From a virus (taxonomy: Duplodnaviria; Caudoviricetes), in the IMG/VR virus record IMGVR_UViG_2541047295_000015, positions 1 through 64,000 of that record: 64,000 bases of DNA. One strand, written 5' to 3'. A program made the translations under genes and the position numbers. Below are positions 27,070-35,960 of the stretch, piece by piece. Numbering within the stretch: position 1 is the first letter of the stretch; every line of letters starts with the position of its first letter. The notes under the pieces are model-generated. The model saw nothing but the letters and a program-made list of their open reading frames with translations, was not told the origin of the DNA and made no database searches.

Positions 27070-28542
27070 ATGGCAGAAGAGTTTAAAATTAAGACCAGTA
27101 TTGAACTTGATGACAAAAAGGCTAGGCAACAATTAGCATCATTGAAGACATCTGCAAAAGAAAATAATATAAAATTAAATGTAGAAATGAACACATCATC
27201 TCTAAATAATTTGAAACAATTAGAGAACACATTAAAACAAATTAATAAACTTAGTAGAGAAACACAAAACGGATTATTTGGTGGAAAGGGTAGCTCGAAT
27301 GGAAATATAAATAAGTTAACTTCTCAATATGATAACTTTAAGAAGAAAATAGAGTCTACTCAAAGACAATTAAAGAAATTTACTCAGACAAACATTTTAG
27401 ATAACAAGCAAATAGGAGAAATTAACAAACTATCAGGAGAATTGAAAAGATTATCCAATATTAAATTAGATGGCTTAAATTCAAAAGCCTTATCGGATTT
27501 ATCAAATGTTCAGTCTAAATTTGCTAATATGAAAATACCAGATATGAATACGAAAATGGCTTCTCAATTTAAAACTCTTCAAAATGAAGCTGGTAAATTA
27601 GCAAATAAAATAGAATCATTAGGTAAATCTGGATACGCAGATACATCTAAACTACAAGGTTTATCAAACTCGTTAAAGTCAATTCAAAATTTAAATCTTA
27701 AAAATCTAACTTCTAACCAAATACAATCAGAAATACAAAAGCTAGAACAATTAAAAAATAAAGTTAAAGAAGTAGAAAATGCTACTAAAAACACTAAATT
27801 AGATGCTAAATTTAATATGAATCTTTCTAAAGTAATTTCAGATTTAAATAGGCTTAGACAAAAATGTGTAGAATTGGGTCAATCAACTGCTGGAATTGAT
27901 AAACTTGAAAAAGAATTAATGCAATTAAATGGTATGCCTCTAGGTCAAAAAGTAAAAGAATTAGATTCGATAAAAAGTAGACTAAGCAATATGAAATCTA
28001 ATTTCACAGGATTAGGAACTAGTGTAAAAACAACAAGTGGTTTCTTTAGTGACTTATATAATTCAATGAGAACTTATACTTTAGGTAATATGATAGGTAT
28101 GTCTATTACAAATGGTGTAAGAAATATAAAAACAACTATTGTTGAATTAGATAGTGCATTAAGAGATATGATGAAAGTAGCCCCTGATAATTTTGAAGGG
28201 ACAAGTGAGCAATTAAAGAATGTAAAAAATGAAGCAATTTCAATAGGGAAAGATACTGCTAGAGCATCAGAAGATATAATTCAAGGTGTATCTAAAGCTT
28301 TGCAGACAGGTGTAAAGTCTGTATCAGACAGTTTAAAGATAGCTAAACAATCAGCAGTTTTTGCAAATGTTGGTGATTTAGACCAAGAAACTGCCGATAA
28401 GTACTTAACTAGTGTCATGTCCGCTTATGGTGGAATGACAAAAGCATTAAAACCAATTAAAGATACTAGAGTTCAAATCAAAGGAATGAGTAAAGATTAT
28501 GATAATCTCACAAAGTTTCTTGATTTATCGAACTATGCAGGT
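27070..28542 (+). CDS. Tape measure protein, exon 1
   Basis: Coiled-coil N-terminus entering a TP901-type tape measure core (ELDSALRDMMKV...SEDIIQG...FANVGD); ends NYAG at a group I 5' splice site. Confidence 0.85.
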
Positions 28543-28800
28543 TAATAAAATAGCCCCTTTATATAGAAATATATAATTGAACTCAGAATATGCTGGAAAC
28601 TCCTTAGAGCCTTAATTAGTAAGTGTATTTGGAAACTTATACATCATCTGAAAATATTAAGGATTGGACAATCAGCAGAGATAGACCTAAGTTCAAAAAA
28701 AAGAATATGGTAAGCTCTCAACGACTACCAATGAGCATCCTAAATGGGTGATGGTATAGTCTATTCCCTTTTAAATATCGAGAAATCGAGGGTATAAAAG
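28543..28800 (+). ncRNA. Group I intron 1 in the tape measure gene (258 nt, no ORF)
   Basis: P1 ggU|ua...uaGcc with U-G wobble; P tgctggaaa, Q aatcagcag, R tcaacgacta, S ggtatagtct; terminal G at 28800. Confidence 0.9.
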
Positions 28801-28827
28801 AATAATTTTGCAATAACAACTGGCGAT
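28801..28827 (+). CDS. Tape measure protein, exon 2 (NNFAITTGD)
   Basis: 27 nt; completes the AGNNFAITT motif. Confidence 0.85.
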
Positions 28828-29132
28828 TAATTTTAGTCGCACTATATAGTAATATGTAGTTAAAAACTCCTTTAATTGCTGGGAACTCCTTAGAGCTAAC
28901 TAAACTACAACATAATTGGAAACGATAAATGTGAATGTTTAAAAATTAGTTGGATTGGACAATCAGCATCCAAGCTCCGTATGGGAGAAGGTTCAACGAC
29001 TATTATGTAGATTCAAGTGAATCGAAATGGGGAGCATCCTTAAAGGATGAAGATATAGTCTCGTCTTTATAGAGATATAAAGAAGTTCATAAGAGAACTG
29101 ATTAGGACTAACGAACCTAATTGAAGGTATCG
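28828..29132 (+). ncRNA. Group I intron 2 in the tape measure gene (305 nt, no ORF)
   Basis: P1 gcgaU|u...aGucgc; P aattgctggga, Q aatcagca, R ttcaacgacta, S gaagatatagtct; terminal G at 29132 (alternative in-frame G at 29126). Confidence 0.88.
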
Positions 29133-29273
29133 GTAGGAGCAGCGTTACAGCGAAGTGCGAGCATGTTATCATCAGCAGGTGTCTCTATGGAGGACTCTGT
29201 TGCATTGATAATTGGAGGAAATGAATCTGTACAAAATGCTGAAAAAGTAGGTACAGCACTCAAAACAATTGGT
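29133..29273 (+). CDS. Tape measure protein, exon 3 (VGAALQRSAS...KVGTALKTIG)
   Basis: 141 nt, 47 codons with no stop; typical tape measure core sequence. Confidence 0.88.
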
Positions 29274-29547
29274 TAATAAAATAGCCCCTTTATATAGTGA
29301 TATATAATTGAACTCAGAATATCAGGGAAAGTCCTTAGAGCTTTAATTACCAAGCATTAGAGAAATCAAAATGTGGCATTGCTAATCACAATGGTATGGT
29401 AATAAGATTAAAGATTGGATAATCCTGAGACACAGTCCTAAGTCAATTAATAAGGAAAGGTCGCAACGACTATCAATGAGCATCCTAAATGGATGATGGT
29501 ATAGTCTATTCCCATTTTTAAATATCTGGAAACAGAGGGTATTAAAG
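29274..29547 (+). ncRNA. Group I intron 3 in the tape measure gene (274 nt, no ORF), paralog of intron 1
   Basis: Same 5' end taataaaatagcccctttatatag as intron 1; P tcagggaaa / Q aatcctgag covary; R gcaacgacta, S ggtatagtct; terminal G at 29547. Confidence 0.9.
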
Positions 29548-32500
29548 ATAAACATGAGTGGTATCAAAGCTTCAGCAGATTCAGGGAAAATCAGTCTTAA
29601 CAAAACTGCTAAAACATTACAAGAAACAGCTAAAATAAATGTATTAGATAAACAAACCGGTCAAGTAAGAGATATGATGTCAATTTTAGATGAGTTGGCA
29701 GAAAAGTGGCATAGTGTTGGAGAAGATGCCTTAACTAAAAATCAAAAAAGTGGTATTGCTGAAAGTATTTCAGGCAAAAACCACATAAATACTTTCATGG
29801 CTATCATGGATAATTGGAATCAGGTAAAAAAATTCCAAAGTTCATGGCTTAGTGGAGAAGTGCTAGGCTCTGCTTCTGCGGAAAATGAAAGATTCATAAA
29901 TTCGGCAGAGGGAAAGATTATAAAGTTAAAAGAAAGTCTAAAACAATTAGTTACAGATACTATATCTACTGATATGTTTAAGACTAGTTTAGATGGATTA
30001 TCTGGAATCACTGGTGTTTTAAATGGGATAACTAAAGCAGCAGATAAAATGCACATTTCCCTTCCTGTAGCATTAGCAAGTTTATCAGCTTTATTTATGA
30101 CGATTAAAGCATTGGGTACTGGTAAACCAATCACGAATTTGTTTAGTGCTGGGAAAAGTGCATTTCAAAATAATAGAAAATCTGTTAAATTTAAAGATTT
30201 CGAAAAAGCAACGAAATTTACTAATCAATATACGAATGCCATAAATAAAAATACTAATGCTTCAAATAATAATGCTAAATCAAATGCTATTGTCAATAGA
30301 ACTATAAAAAGTCAAAAAGGTATTGTAGGGAATTATGTATCAACAACTAACAGTTTAAAAAAGGCTACAGCTAAAGAAATAAAAATAAATGAAGACAGAA
30401 CAAAGTCGTATGAAAAGTACAATCAAAAATTAAAAGTAGTATCTAAAAGTAGAAAAGATACAATCGGTGATGGACTTAGTAATATTGGTAAAGCATTTGC
30501 AGGAAGTAGCATTGTAAATTTTGGTAAGGGCATAGCAACTACAGTCGGAAATTCTTTAGTATTAACTGCTGCATTTGCAGGAGTAACTTTGTTGGCTCAA
30601 GCTATGGAAAATTATGCTAACAGGGAAGAAAATGCATATCAAGCTAGAAAGAAAAATATACAAGCTTCAAAACAACAAATCAATTCATATGAAAGCCAAA
30701 AAACTCAATTACAAGCACTTGCAGAAGAATATGATAATTTATCTAAAAAAGAAAATAAGTCTAAAGAAGATAATAATAGATTAAATGAACTAAAACAACA
30801 GATTGGAAAAATAAAACCAGATTCAGTTATAGGAACAGATGAAAATGGCATACCTATTTTAAAAGGTCAGGTCACTGACTTAATTGCTGAAATAGACAGA
30901 GCTATTAATGCAAAAGAAAGATTGATGTCCTATGATAAACATGACAATGCAGAAACAGCTGCTAAAAAATTAAATTCTCCAAGTAAAAATCCAAATAAAA
31001 CTTTGGAAGAAAGAATGAGAGAAAGTGAAACTGGTAAGCTTGTAAAAATAGAAGAAGATTATACAGCAGAAGTTGAAAAGAATAAAAAAAGACAAGAAAA
31101 AGCAATAGAAAAATATAATAATTCAACTGGCAGAGCAAGAGATAAAGCTAGAAATGAATTAATGTCAGCAAAAGCAGAAGAAGAGAAGATTTATTTCAAG
31201 TATGATGAAATGTATAGAAATCAAGTTAATAAGATTCAAGGCTATTCAAAAGAAATAGGCGATGGAATTTTCTCTAACATTAAGAATAAAACTCTTTACA
31301 GTGGATTAGAAGGAAATGATAAGTCTAATTTTGCTGGACTTGAGAGTTTATTTGATTTTAGTGAGGTTACACCAGATACTTTAGTAGACACAGAACAAGC
31401 AGTTAATAAATTACTTACTGCTGTTAGAAGTGGAAAAGTTGATGTAGGAGATTTATCTAAAACTCTTAAAGATGCCAATGAAGAATTTGCTAGAACACAA
31501 GATATAGAGAAATATAATCAAACAATAGATAAAACAGCTAAGAGCATAGCTAAAGCGACTAATACAGATGTTAATATATGGGAAAATTTATTTGGTCAAG
31601 TTAATCCTAATGGTATTAAGGATATGACATCAATAAATACATTATTAGCGAAGTTTGGTAAGACAAAATTAGATTTGGCCAATGGTGATGAATTTGCAAT
31701 GCAACTTCAAAATCAATTTGATAGCATACAAAACATCTTAGATACAACAACAATAACTGGAGATGTGAAAGTTGATGCAAATATATTAACTGACATTAAA
31801 AATACTAAGGAAGTTCCTAGCCAAGTTAAAGGTATGATAGATTCTTTATTAGGAACAGGGGCAAGTTCCACTGATGTATTGAAGTTCACAATGGATGTTT
31901 TAATGGAGTTACAAACTGGTGACCCAGATATAACTAAACTTCAAAATGACTTAGATAACAAATTTGGAAAAGGTACGTTTACCATAACCCCAGAAATACT
32001 TTTAAGTGATGATTCAGGTCAAGCTAATGTAAATCAAATAATAGATAGTTTAAAACAAAAGTATGAAGAAGTGCCAAAAAAGGTTATTACAATAATTCAA
32101 GCAAATCCTACCACAACATTACAAGAAGCTGATTCATTAAAACAAATGTATGATAGATTTCCAAAAGAAATAAATACTATCATAGAACAAAAGGGTGCAG
32201 ATGAGGGTGGCAAAAAGGTATTAGAGTTAACTTCTAAATATAAGAAGATACCATCTAAGCTTAGAACTAGTTTAGAAACAGATGGTGTTGGACTGGAAAA
32301 AGCTGTACAAATCTCAGAAATATACAATAAAATACCACCAGAACTAAAGACATACCTATTAGCTGATGGGAAAGATGCTTTATATAATGCTACAAGTTTA
32401 AAAGATGCATTAGAACATATCCCGAAAGAGAAAATAACTGAAATATATTTAAATAAAAATGAAAATAACTTTGGGATACAAGATCTAATAACCTCATTAG

Positions 32501-34896
32501 ATAAAATTCCTATGAGTAAAGAAGTAAGAATTGACATCTATAAAGCGTTAACAGAAGGGGATATAGACGCTCTAGGTAAAGCCATTGAAAGCCTACCACC
32601 AGATAAAAGAGTAGAAGTAATTGCCGAAATAGAAAAAGCTAAAGATGATATTAAAACTATTAGTTCTTCTGAAATAGCAAATAAAATTTTTACTATAGAG
32701 GTTAAGGATTTAGCATCAGATACTATTGAGTGGATTCAAAATAAGCTAAAAGAAATAAAGGGTGACAAAGATAAAAAAGACCCTGTCAAAGATGCGAAAA
32801 ATTCTACTGAAGAAGCTATAGGAAAATCTTCAAGCAATAAAAATCCTTTAAAATCAAAAGTAAAAGAAGCTAATGATGTAGTTGACCATATATTAAATAC
32901 TCCTGTTACAAAAGAAATTAAACTACAGGTAGAAAATAGAGACTTTAAAAAACAATTAGATTCAATTACACAACTTGATGGTAGGGATGAAGTAAAATTA
33001 AAACTTGAATCTTCAGGTGTGAATATAGAACAGGTAGGAGTATTTTTAGATACAATAAAGAATCTCCCTACAAGTTCAACATTTACAAATAAATTTATAG
33101 TTGATAATGTAGATAGTTTAAAAGGATTAAAAGATTATCAAGCTGTAGTTGAATGGATTAAAAATAATCCTACAATGGCAATGGACTATGATATCAATAT
33201 AAATAATTTAGAAAACTTTGATGAGCTAAAAGAAGTCTATACTAGTTTAGATACAAAAGAGAAAAAACAAGTATTTGCGGAATTTGTAATTAACAATCCA
33301 AATAAATTAGAAGAATTTCAAGAATTATATAGTAAGACTCCCGAAGATACTAAAACTACTGTTATTAATTTTGCTGTTGAAAATGCAGATAAATTAAGAA
33401 GTGCAATTGATTTATATAATACTACACCAGAAGAGCAAAAAGATAAAGTTTTAAATTTTATATTGAATAATCCAGATAAGTTATATTTAATTCAAAGTCT
33501 TTATGATGACTTTCCTGATAATAAAGATATTATAGCCAACCTTATAGTAAATAATCCAGAAGCATTAGATGAGGTTGAGAAATTAAATGCTTTAGATTTA
33601 AATAAAGATGTAAAAATAAACATAATAAAATCTCTTGCAAATGGAGATATTGATTCATTAGTTGAGGAAATAGATAAATTGCCTCCTGATAAACAAGTTG
33701 AAGTAATTGCAGCGGTAGAAGGAGCTATTGCTGGGATAGATAGTGTTGATAAAAAAACACTAAGTCCTAAATGGGCTAAATTAAAAGCAGATGCAACTGA
33801 CGCAAATAATAAAATCAACCAAACTGAGAATAAAAAGATAAGCGACAAAAGCTTCAATATTATAGGTCATGTTAGTATAATTTCAAAAGTAACAAGTGGA
33901 CTTGTTGACCTTGCTCATAATGCTGGGCTTGGTGGAGGAAAGAGTGATAGGAAAAGTGTACAATCCATAAATTCTATAGAAACTCCACAACCAATTCCAG
34001 CAAATCTATCCCAACCTAGAACATCAGAACCAGTACCAATAAGTGACGAAACTCCTGTAACAAAGCCATCCTTATTCTCAAGAGCAGTATCAAGAGCCAC
34101 GGCACCGATAAAGGCTCTTAAAACATTAACTCAAGACACTCCAATAGATAAAAATTTTGATGCTATTATAAAATATGAAATAGAGTTATTTAAAGAATTA
34201 GAGAACCAACTTTCAAAAGTAACAAATGAACTATCATTGCTAGATAAGCAAATGAAAAATGCTACTAATGAGCAGAAACTCAATTATCTTAAAAAACAAA
34301 ATGAACTATATAAAGAGCAGGAAAGACTTTTAAATAGAAAAGAAGCTCTTACAAAAGATGAAGCAAATAGATTTAAAAAGGTATTGAGTGATAAAGGTTT
34401 CAAGTTTAATTCTGATGGAAACATGACAAATTATGAAGAGTTATCTATAAAAAAAGAAAAAGAATTAGCTAAACTTGAAGCAGAGGCAAATAAAGAGAAA
34501 GCATCTGATAAGACTAAGAAGAAATATGAAGATGCAAAAAAAGCTTGGGATGAAACTAAGAAATATCGTGATGAATATTTAGATATCATGTTTACTGAAC
34601 TACCAAAAGTAGTTGAAGAAAAACAAGAAGTGGTAAATGCTACAAAAGATATAGAAAAAGCAGAGCGAGATTTAAGAAATGAGGCTTGGAAGCTACATAA
34701 AGAATCTGAATGGACATCTATGAATAGAGATGTTGAAGAAGTTAATAATCAACTTGAATTGTTAGATGTACTAATGGGGAATGCCTTTGGTGTTGAAAAA
34801 AATGATTTACTTCAACAGAAACTAGATTTATTAGAAAAACAGAAAAAAGAAATGAGTGAAACTACGTCTTACATGAAACAAGTCAAAATGAAATAA
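29548..34896 (+). CDS. Tape measure protein, exon 4
   Basis: INMSGIK... in frame from 29548; ILDELAEKW...ISGKNHINTF core; long helical repeats. Confidence 0.85.
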   Translation: MNMSGIKASADSGKISLNKTAKTLQETAKINVLDKQTGQVRDMMSILDELAEKWHSVGEDALTKNQKSGIAESISGKNHINTFMAIMDNWNQVKKFQSSWLSGEVLGSASAENERFINSAEGKIIKLKESLKQLVTDTISTDMFKTSLDGLSGITGVLNGITKAADKMHISLPVALASLSALFMTIKALGTGKPITNLFSAGKSAFQNNRKSVKFKDFEKATKFTNQYTNAINKNTNASNNNAKSNAIVNRTIKSQKGIVGNYVSTTNSLKKATAKEIKINEDRTKSYEKYNQKLKVVSKSRKDTIGDGLSNIGKAFAGSSIVNFGKGIATTVGNSLVLTAAFAGVTLLAQAMENYANREENAYQARKKNIQASKQQINSYESQKTQLQALAEEYDNLSKKENKSKEDNNRLNELKQQIGKIKPDSVIGTDENGIPILKGQVTDLIAEIDRAINAKERLMSYDKHDNAETAAKKLNSPSKNPNKTLEERMRESETGKLVKIEEDYTAEVEKNKKRQEKAIEKYNNSTGRARDKARNELMSAKAEEEKIYFKYDEMYRNQVNKIQGYSKEIGDGIFSNIKNKTLYSGLEGNDKSNFAGLESLFDFSEVTPDTLVDTEQAVNKLLTAVRSGKVDVGDLSKTLKDANEEFARTQDIEKYNQTIDKTAKSIAKATNTDVNIWENLFGQVNPNGIKDMTSINTLLAKFGKTKLDLANGDEFAMQLQNQFDSIQNILDTTTITGDVKVDANILTDIKNTKEVPSQVKGMIDSLLGTGASSTDVLKFTMDVLMELQTGDPDITKLQNDLDNKFGKGTFTITPEILLSDDSGQANVNQIIDSLKQKYEEVPKKVITIIQANPTTTLQEADSLKQMYDRFPKEINTIIEQKGADEGGKKVLELTSKYKKIPSKLRTSLETDGVGLEKAVQISEIYNKIPPELKTYLLADGKDALYNATSLKDALEHIPKEKITEIYLNKNENNFGIQDLITSLDKIPMSKEVRIDIYKALTEGDIDALGKAIESLPPDKRVEVIAEIEKAKDDIKTISSSEIANKIFTIEVKDLASDTIEWIQNKLKEIKGDKDKKDPVKDAKNSTEEAIGKSSSNKNPLKSKVKEANDVVDHILNTPVTKEIKLQVENRDFKKQLDSITQLDGRDEVKLKLESSGVNIEQVGVFLDTIKNLPTSSTFTNKFIVDNVDSLKGLKDYQAVVEWIKNNPTMAMDYDININNLENFDELKEVYTSLDTKEKKQVFAEFVINNPNKLEEFQELYSKTPEDTKTTVINFAVENADKLRSAIDLYNTTPEEQKDKVLNFILNNPDKLYLIQSLYDDFPDNKDIIANLIVNNPEALDEVEKLNALDLNKDVKINIIKSLANGDIDSLVEEIDKLPPDKQVEVIAAVEGAIAGIDSVDKKTLSPKWAKLKADATDANNKINQTENKKISDKSFNIIGHVSIISKVTSGLVDLAHNAGLGGGKSDRKSVQSINSIETPQPIPANLSQPRTSEPVPISDETPVTKPSLFSRAVSRATAPIKALKTLTQDTPIDKNFDAIIKYEIELFKELENQLSKVTNELSLLDKQMKNATNEQKLNYLKKQNELYKEQERLLNRKEALTKDEANRFKKVLSDKGFKFNSDGNMTNYEELSIKKEKELAKLEAEANKEKASDKTKKKYEDAKKAWDETKKYRDEYLDIMFTELPKVVEEKQEVVNATKDIEKAERDLRNEAWKLHKESEWTSMNRDVEEVNNQLELLDVLMGNAFGVEKNDLLQQKLDLLEKQKKEMSETTSYMKQVKMK

Positions 34897-35960
34897 AGGG
34901 TAAACTTCAAGGTTTTGGATTTCAATTTAGAGATGATGGTACAATAACTAACTACATTCAACAACTAGACAAGTTATTCCAAAGTAATGATAACTTTGAT
35001 GAAGCAAAAGAATTGGTTGATGCTTATTTAGATTTAATGATGGATAAAATTCCTGATGCCGAAAAAGAAATGGCTAAGTTAGATGCTACAATTAAAGCAG
35101 CATTAAAAGAAAAGTTAGAAACTACTAAAGAAATAGAAGATGAGATAACTAAAGTTTATGAAAAGCAAATTGAAGAACGTAAGAAACAGATAGACGATGA
35201 GCTTAAAAAACGTCTTGATGCACTTAATAAAGAAAAAGAAGCCTACAATAAAGCTAGAGATAAAGCAGATTATCAGCGTGATTATGATGATAAATCAAAA
35301 GAAATAGAGGAACTTCAAAAGAAATTAGATATTGCTGAAAGAGATAGCTCACTATCAGGACAAAAGAAAGTACAGGAATTAAGAAAAGAATTAGAAGAGG
35401 CTAAGAGAGCATTAGAAGATTTAGTTCAAGACCAGATTGATAAAGATGTAAATGATATGTATGATGATGAAAGTGATAGACTACAAGATGAAGCAGATAA
35501 AGCTAAAGAAGATTTGGATAATAAGTATACTAAAGAAGAATTAGCTAGATTAATCAAAGAAGCATTAAATACAGGATTATTTACAGATATAAATGGTGAG
35601 GTTCATGATTTACAACAAACATTGCTTGATTTTGCTGATAAGTATGGTGATGGATTAGGGGCTACAGGGGCTATTATAAAAAGTGAATTAGTTGGTAATC
35701 TTGAAATTGCTAAAAAAGTAATGGAGGATATGTTAGATATTCAAGATAAATTAGGTGTTGGTGAATATAGCAATTATTCAGTACCTAGAGGTCGTAGTTA
35801 TCAACCTCAACAATCTAATCAAAATCAATTTAATTACAATGCTCCATTAGTTAGTGTACAAGGTACTATGAATAGGGATATATTAAAAGAAGTAGAAAAA
35901 ATGATTAAAAAGTCTCAAGATGAACTTGCCAAAGAAATAGTAAGAAAAACTAAATATTAA
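34881..35960 (+). CDS. Tape measure protein C-terminal part in the -1 frame
   Basis: Frame open from 34860; KGKLQGFGFQFRDDGTITNY repeats KVLSDKGFKFNSDGNMTNY of the upstream frame; no clear RBS at 35013. Confidence 0.7.
   Translation, partial: SQNEIKGKLQGFGFQFRDDGTITNYIQQLDKLFQSNDNFDEAKELVDAYLDLMMDKIPDAEKEMAKLDATIKAALKEKLETTKEIEDEITKVYEKQIEERKKQIDDELKKRLDALNKEKEAYNKARDKADYQRDYDDKSKEIEELQKKLDIAERDSSLSGQKKVQELRKELEEAKRALEDLVQDQIDKDVNDMYDDESDRLQDEADKAKEDLDNKYTKEELARLIKEALNTGLFTDINGEVHDLQQTLLDFADKYGDGLGATGAIIKSELVGNLEIAKKVMEDMLDIQDKLGVGEYSNYSVPRGRSYQPQQSNQNQFNYNAPLVSVQGTMNRDILKEVEKMIKKSQDELAKEIVRKTKY

Follow-up and report, generated by a model that had tools for sequence, protein, structure and literature searches.

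The question raised by the locus

The DNA considered here is a 64,000-nucleotide stretch of a tailed-phage genome (IMG/VR record IMGVR_UViG_2541047295_000015, positions 1 to 64,000), referred to below as the window. Its ORF listing places two plus-strand open reading frames about 1 kb apart, at 27070-28545 (491 aa) and 29554-34896 (1780 aa). This arrangement raises the question of whether two genes are divided by a spacer or whether a single gene is interrupted by elements that are removed from its RNA. An earlier note, prepared from the letters of the sequence, favored the second answer and placed three tandem group I introns in a tape-measure gene. The analysis presented here leads to a similar view, namely that three ORF-less group I introns very probably split one tape-measure gene and represent self-spliced selfish elements residing in a polymorphic hot-spot.

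One tape-measure gene in four exons

The window is related to the ~130-kb Clostridioides difficile phages phiCD211/phiCDIF1296T, AR1086-1, and pCD1602_4, and the gene resides in a plasmid-type siphophage of this bacterium that is phiCD211-like and ~130 kb in size. In profile searches with each of the two unspliced frames alone, no match to a tape-measure family was obtained for either of them. When the four exons listed in Table 1 are joined, they give a frame of 2,329 codons with zero internal stops, and all the junction peptides predicted earlier (NYAG/NNFAITTGD/VGAALQR and those that follow) are obtained. Over residues 1-621, the spliced frame is 97.7% identical to that of AR1086-1. Exon 1 shows 96-98% identity to the N-terminal region of the phiCD211 and AR1086-1 tape-measure proteins, while exon 2 is 100% identical to uninterrupted coding DNA of both these phages. 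Exon 3, taken by itself, is a partial match to Pfam PF10145 PhageMin_Tail (positions 97-141 of 201). The protein of AR1086-1 matches PF10145 PhageMin_Tail with 73.9 bits and TIGR01760 tape_meas_TP901 with 59.4 bits, and these matches span the junctions. Since the intron-less allele is recognized across the junctions and the window's separate frames are not recognized at all, the two frames belong to one tape-measure gene, with the introns located in its most conserved core.

The alternative of two independent genes, in which no splicing occurs and the proteins of 491 and 1,780 aa are separate products encoded on both sides of a structured spacer, has a negligible probability. The two frames are indeed called separately in public annotation, and the ATG at 29554 might serve as the start of the second one; however, the sole Shine–Dalgarno-like sequence, GAGGG, sits 14 nt before this ATG, the Pfam domain spans the junctions, and the spacer itself consists of three ribozyme cores. 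Moreover, both short exons foreseen in the earlier note, of 27 and 141 nt, were found to be conserved coding sequence, and they are contiguous in relatives, whose homologs retain the NNFAITTGD and VGAALQR segments.

Table 1. Features of the tape-measure locus, insertion sites, and their occupancy. Positions of exons, introns, and ORFs are those of the window; sites are given as codons of the spliced protein; L numbers are handles for loci.
Feature	Position	Strand	Remarks
Putative free-standing homing endonuclease, 565 aa	24522..26219	+	850 bp upstream of the tape-measure gene
Tape-measure exon 1	27070..28542	+	491 codons, ends ...GGT; boundary set by intron-less alleles
Intron 1	28543..28800	+	258 nt, ORF-less, lineage A1, phase 0; TAA start, G end
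Exon 2 (micro-exon)	28801..28827	+	27 nt, 9 codons; in frame in the spliced product
Intron 2	28828..29132	+	305 nt, ORF-less, lineage A2, phase 0; TAA start, G end
Exon 3	29133..29273	+	141 nt, 47 codons; contiguous with exons 2 and 4 in AR1086-1
Intron 3	29274..29547	+	274 nt, ORF-less, lineage A1, phase 0; TAA start, G end
Exon 4 in the present assembly	29548..34896	+	frame ends at 34896 after 1-nt deletion at 34879/34880
Tape-measure C-terminal piece, -1 frame	34860..35960	+	called ORF 35013-35960, 315 aa; PHROG 10871
Lineage B/C inserts	L001:3179-3466; L004:4907-5192, 5436-5703; L022:5306-5604, 7074-7388; L035 ~4833-5104		268-315 nt
Site S0	435/436		lineage C
Site S1'	~487		lineage B
Site S1	491/492		lineage A1
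Site S2	500/501		lineage A2
Site SX	536/537		lineage B
Site S3	547/548		lineage A1
Site S5b	~620		lineage B
Site S5	621		lineage A2
Site S6	640		lineage C
Occupancy, window	S1, S2, S3		3 inserts
Occupancy, phiCD211	SX, S3		2 inserts
Occupancy, AR1086-1	S5		1 insert
Occupancy, pCD1602_4	S1, SX, S5b		3 inserts
Occupancy, L020	S1, S2		2 inserts
Occupancy, L022	S0, S1, S2, S5, S6		5 inserts
Occupancy, L024	S0, S1, S2, SX, S3, S6		6 inserts

Natural alleles without the introns

The strongest evidence for the introns is provided by natural alleles that lack them. In AR1086-1, the DNA runs from exon 1 through exons 2 and 3 into exon 4 at exactly the predicted bases, and the alignment to intron-less homologs that had been proposed as a check thus gives a base-for-base match. 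In phiCD211, introns 1 and 2 are absent and the DNA is contiguous over junctions 1 and 2, again at the exact bases. Intron 3 is absent from both AR1086-1 and pCD1602_4. A shift of any boundary by one base destroys the match to these alleles, and therefore the boundaries are unique. An automatic global alignment of the window to the spliced reference returned the same three intron intervals that are given in Table 1.

Covariance-model matches and intron boundaries

The 1.5-kb stretch between 28300 and 29800 was searched against Rfam, where the model of the Group I catalytic intron (RF00028) has a gathering score of 50. Three plus-strand RF00028 matches were found, one at each of the three cores that had been proposed, with E-values from 2e-23 to 2e-10. 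Intron 2 is above the gathering score, with 90.2 bits (28817-29082, E 2e-23, model positions 1-253), while the full-length matches of intron 1 (28533-28782, 48.8 bits, E 5e-11) and intron 3 (29265-29528, 46.7 bits, E 2e-10) are slightly under it. The matches of introns 1 and 2 were found again in a search of the whole genome (4.76 Mb). No match was returned by a whole-window search at gathering thresholds or by an E-value search of a 42-kb set of multiple loci. Because short stretches give clear matches, these misses with large inputs are filter losses rather than a sign of absence. The expectation that automatic annotation would overlook the introns is borne out by the empty gathering search of the window and by public records, which list the pieces as separate proteins.

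Additional features of the introns are visible in the sequence and agree with the first reading of the locus. The exons upstream of all three introns end in T, an in-frame TAA stands at the start of every intron, and a terminal G (omega-G) is located at 28800, 29132, and 29547. Together, the introns account for 837 nt (258 + 305 + 274). No ORF for a homing endonuclease or a transposase was found inside them, as the longest stop-free stretch has at most 54 codons. Likewise, no additional copies of the tape-measure introns were found elsewhere in the window.

Outside this locus, RF00028 matches were observed at approximately 22 further places in the genome, mostly at contig ends, with scores of 51-66 bits and lengths of ~350-375 nt (for example C65:68417-68791 and C28:118438-118807). 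We take them as probable CdISt1-type IStrons, which interrupt the assembly and have no relation to the introns of the tape-measure gene. In IStrons, which measure ~2 kb, a group I ribozyme is combined with transposase genes of the IS200/605 type. In contrast to CdISt1 IStrons, the group I ribozymes of C. difficile that carry transposase genes, the tape-measure introns are 258-305 nt long and ORF-less.

RNA structure of the three introns

Introns 1 and 3 are paralogs that share 75% identity and have the same P1 and guide sequence, with GGU/UA (the slash marks the splice site) paired with UAGCC and a U-G pair at the splice site. RNAalifold was run separately for each lineage, with six sequences in each of the A1 and A2 alignments. 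For lineage A1, this recovered P1, P2, P4-P6, P7 (GACUA/UAGUC), P8, and P9, supported by 12 compensatory pairs, and compensatory changes between introns 1 and 3 are found in P4, P6, P8, and P9. In intron 2, P1 has 7 bp and is formed by GCGAU/UA with UAGUCGC, also with a U-G pair at the splice site. RNAalifold recovered the same set of helices for lineage A2, where the number of compensatory pairs is 13. An extra hairpin lies between P7 and P3' of this intron. The U-G pair in P1 at the splice site is present in six out of six sequences in both lineage alignments, and the U-G wobble P1 helices described earlier are thus confirmed for all three introns. At the level of sequence, the guanosine-binding helix P7 is present and invariant in all copies, and the P10 pairings appear weak when judged by eye.

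Intron 2 shows 72-74% identity over 138 nt to T4-type nrdB introns, and its core resembles T4-type nrdB introns as well as introns of Staphylococcus, Bacillus, and Pseudomonas phages. Sequences similar to the 3' part of intron 1 occur in Listeria, Enterococcus, SPbeta-like, and Clostridium c-st phages. The introns appear to be subgroup IA-like. Extra hairpins near P7/P3 (P7.1/P7.2) characterize the IA2 introns of phages (T4 nrdB, Twort), and intron 2 might be of this subgroup. A separate observation is that the core of intron 2, at 28933-29061, is 80-81% identical to a stretch in the ~73-kb Pseudomonas aeruginosa phages YH6, VL1, and Pa_WF01. There, the counterpart is annotated as Intron_gpI, and this single lineage has a very wide host span.

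An intron hot-spot in the tape-measure core

To map insertion sites, 18 related IMG/VR loci and 5 phage records were aligned to the spliced reference, and the sites were numbered on the spliced protein (Table 1). The relatives carry from 1 to 6 inserts, each of 255-315 nt, at ~9 sites within ~205 codons (codons 435-641). Four insert lineages can be distinguished, A1 and A2 as well as B and C, of which the latter two are Rfam-negative. Site occupancy is a polymorphic trait, with differences between phages that share 93-100% identity in their exons.

In L024 (IMGVR_UViG_2541047298_000017, positions 5306-7656), six inserts are packed into ~2.35 kb, and L025 is arranged likewise. The internal exons of L024 measure 168, 27, 108, 33, and 278 nt. 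The introns that it carries at sites 1, 2, and 3 share 95% identity with those of the window, and its Rfam matches are restricted to the inserts at S1, S2, and S3. Excision of the inserts regains an open frame in L024 (six inserts), L022 (five), L026 (four), and L029 (three). As judged from these sequences, the density of up to six inserts at ~9 sites, two Rfam-negative lineages included, appears to be the part of the finding for which no match exists in the literature searched.

The variation in occupancy also bears on the function that the earlier note had ascribed to the introns, namely that of a checkpoint sensitive to Mg2+, GTP, or temperature. According to this proposal, the introns are maintained because splicing couples tail assembly to such conditions, or because exon skipping, in frame from the donor of intron 1 to the acceptor of intron 3, provides protein isoforms. 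In its favor, all the junctions are in phase 0, and there is an in-frame stop at the start of every intron. In addition, introns 1 and 3, paralogous and identical in P1, have the layout of the exon skipping described in Twort orf142 and SIOphi (PMC10136302, PMC11878797). However, the three introns are all missing in AR1086-1 and the first two in phiCD211, and relatives contain up to six inserts, so that there is no conserved configuration of the kind expected for a control device, and skipping would remove exons 2 and 3, which encode 56 residues of the most conserved core. The checkpoint is consequently very improbable, and it finds no support in near-identical phages that carry 1 to 6 inserts in varying combinations. 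Since occupancy varies freely at near-identical exons, and since an allele without all three introns exists, the introns are interpreted as selfish rather than regulatory elements.

Two other features of the relatives should be mentioned. L027 (IMGVR_UViG_2558309133_000003) contains, at 4463-4750, a lone hybrid insert of lineage C whose 5' end is of S0 type and whose 3' end is of S6 type. Codons 437-637 are missing from this locus, which looks as if two introns had recombined at the DNA level, with loss of the intervening exons. In other loci, the first ~34 tape-measure codons are repeated upstream of the real gene (L004:694-792 and 1534-1635; L006:336-437; L035:2139-2249). Other ORFs are present between these repeats and the real gene, which suggests cassette insertions at its 5' end.

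Inserts that are not recognized by Rfam

Lineages B and C gave no match to Rfam, even at E 10. Nevertheless, several features lead us to read them as group I-like. The inserts are located precisely after a U, have a G at the end, and possess a P1 with a U-G pair as well as an R/S-like P7 (GCAUA/UAUGC). Moreover, 25 of the 56 pairs in the lineage B/C alignment are compensatory, including those of the long-range P3.

A lineage B insert is also found within the tape-measure gene of phiCD5763/LIBA2945. phiCD5763 was demonstrated to infect and to form siphovirus particles (PMC5786514), and the insert would therefore have to be removed in vivo. Phages of Bacillus and Streptococcus as well as Lak phages also contain relatives of lineage B, as does the tape-measure gene of Staphylococcus phage 6ec. 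In the record CP011970.1, part of the lineage B insert of phiCD211 (positions 28580-28867 of that phage) is called a terminator; otherwise, this insert is unannotated in phiCD211.

The C-terminus and the integrity of the gene

The reading frame of exon 4 does not reach the end of the gene in the present assembly. Compared with pCD1602_4, a 1-nt deletion at 34879/34880 shifts the last ~359 residues to another frame. The C-terminal piece encoded there matches PHROG 10871, 'tail length tape measure protein', at profile positions 1727-2053 of 2054 (E 1.5e-109). A public protein of 2135 aa, P0021, matches both sides of the break with 100% identity in an unbroken frame, and in pCD1602_4 the frame is continuous as well. 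As an otherwise identical unbroken sequence exists, the break reflects an assembly error or else a mutation of very recent origin. Without the deletion, the spliced protein would have ~2,684 aa. The frame of 2,329 aa reported in the earlier note is therefore open and free of internal stops, as stated, but its end is set by the 1-nt deletion, and the full protein is longer. The frameshifted copy in the present assembly might be non-functional. A programmed frameshift at 34879 was considered and rejected, as no slippery heptamer could be seen by eye and the identical sequence without the deletion exists.

A gene that ends prematurely at 34896 could also be taken as a sign of decay. According to such an explanation, the prophage of this strain is defective, with a tape-measure pseudogene and at least one intron that has lost the ability to splice. 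The scores of introns 1 and 3, just below the Rfam gathering score, would be in line with this, and L027 is a deletion derivative of the same region. We consider decay improbable, however, because the core helices are maintained by compensatory changes between the paralogs, and copies of these introns with 95% identity are present in further complete phage contigs of 125-141 kb. The public protein, otherwise 100% identical, does not have the frameshift, which may be an assembly error.

Proposed splicing and spread of the introns

The introns lie in phase 0 within the conserved PhageMin_Tail/TP901 core of the tape-measure gene, and they are preferably interpreted as self-spliced selfish elements. 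The late transcript would then splice itself three times with exogenous guanosine, giving rise to the full tape-measure mRNA. On RNA that remains unspliced, translation would stop at the TAA which opens each intron.

Paralogous introns at different sites are preceded by a shared motif at their 5' side, which is GGU in lineage A1, GCGAU in A2, GCU in B, and GGU in C, while the wider flanks are unrelated. These 3-5 nt pair with the unchanged guide sequence of the respective lineage. This suggests that new sites may be reached through pairing of the guide sequence, i.e., by reverse splicing, and that the introns could then be shuffled by recombination between co-resident phages. Reverse splicing is proposed from the 3-5-nt target motifs that the paralogs share; however, any working P1 requires such a motif. 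A broader interpretation makes the tape-measure core a landing pad for four or more ribozyme lineages (including two Rfam-invisible ones) that arrive by reverse splicing at 3-5-nt matches, with a load of up to six introns around 27-33-nt exons leading to folding-dependent tail production or to exon-skipped isoforms. We regard this extended scenario as unlikely.

An alternative route of intron spread could be provided by the putative homing endonuclease gene located nearby. The 565-aa protein matches PHROG 559, 'HNH endonuclease' (E 5e-62), and phrog_9084, 'homing endonuclease' (E 1e-22), and it contains the Pfam DUF4379 zinc finger, with four zinc-finger repeats followed by a C-terminal nuclease domain. 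Against PDB sequences, it gave only a weak match, to a V-ATPase chain (E 0.003). Among the relatives, the gene is distributed sporadically: it is present in L023 and L031-L033 but absent from L020, L022, and L024, although these three loci have introns 1 and 2 in common with the window. Collaborative homing by this upstream endonuclease is therefore not supported.

Comparison with known phage introns

The tape-measure introns are familiar in kind, and nothing is changed in principle about phage introns. The earlier note stated that phage introns reside mostly in genes for DNA metabolism, terminase, or lysin; this list is incomplete, since tape-measure and tail-tube hosts have been published (PMC2504315, PMC10448857, PMC10136302).

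The prophages of the Bacillus cereus group contain the group I introns TMP-IVS1, TMP-IVS2, and TMP-IVS3 at three sites of the tape-measure gene (Tourasse and Kolsto 2008, PMC2504315). Similarly to the introns described here, they are small and mostly ORF-less (IA1/IA2 in that case), occupy several sites in the conserved part of the gene, and include related introns at different sites, with occupancy varying between related prophages (PMC2504315). Some of their copies are carried by plasmid-borne prophages (PMC2504315). The two systems differ in density, as at most two introns per gene at the three sites occur in the B. cereus strains described (PMC2504315), whereas three are found in the window and up to six, at ~9 sites, in its relatives. 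They also differ in targeting. In Bacillus, P1 of IVS1 and IVS2 differs to suit the sites (PMC2504315), while the paralogs of the C. difficile phages keep their guide sequence behind the same motif.

Another similar system is orf142 of Staphylococcus phage Twort, which encodes the tail tube. As described in PMC10136302 and PMC11878797, this gene has three group I introns of subgroup IA2 and a 23-nt exon (Landthaler and Shub 1999), and its splicing and exon skipping were shown experimentally. Both cases consist of three tandem small introns in one tail gene, two of them highly similar, together with a micro-exon (23 nt in Twort and 27 nt here). In Twort, the similar introns flank the micro-exon, whereas in the window introns 1 and 3 flank two exons together with intron 2, and the host genes are different. 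Moreover, the evidence for splicing in Twort is experimental, whereas the window introns are known from sequence.

In Vibrio phage ICP1, splicing of a tape-measure intron to a full-length frame was demonstrated by RNA-seq and RT-PCR (Barth et al. 2023, PMC10448857), and the tape-measure gene was called frequently interrupted (PMC10448857). Unlike the three ORF-less introns of the window, ICP1 has a single intron locus with HNH-3 homing endonuclease gene(s) (PMC10448857).

Among the C. difficile phages, the GenBank record of phiCD211 (LN681537.2 / NC_029048.2) contains a misc_RNA feature, 'Intron_gpI', between two tape-measure CDS. This is the ortholog of intron 3 of the window at the same site. 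Only one element is flagged there, and the CDS are not joined. In the literature searched, no discussion of this feature, or of introns or the tape measure in phiCD211-like phages, was found.

Significance

The presence of these introns has consequences for how the gene is represented in databases. In hundreds of public C. difficile assemblies, it is entered as at least two unrelated proteins labelled "hypothetical", "ATPase", or "minor tail", and standard Rfam gathering searches overlook most of the inserts. The dense natural presence/absence alleles, with 1 to 6 introns at ~9 sites behind identical short motifs, could serve to test how ORF-less introns spread, in which reverse splicing can be compared with the action of trans-acting endonucleases. 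Additionally, the same allele series can be used to study the side-by-side folding of several ribozymes around exons of 27-33 nt.
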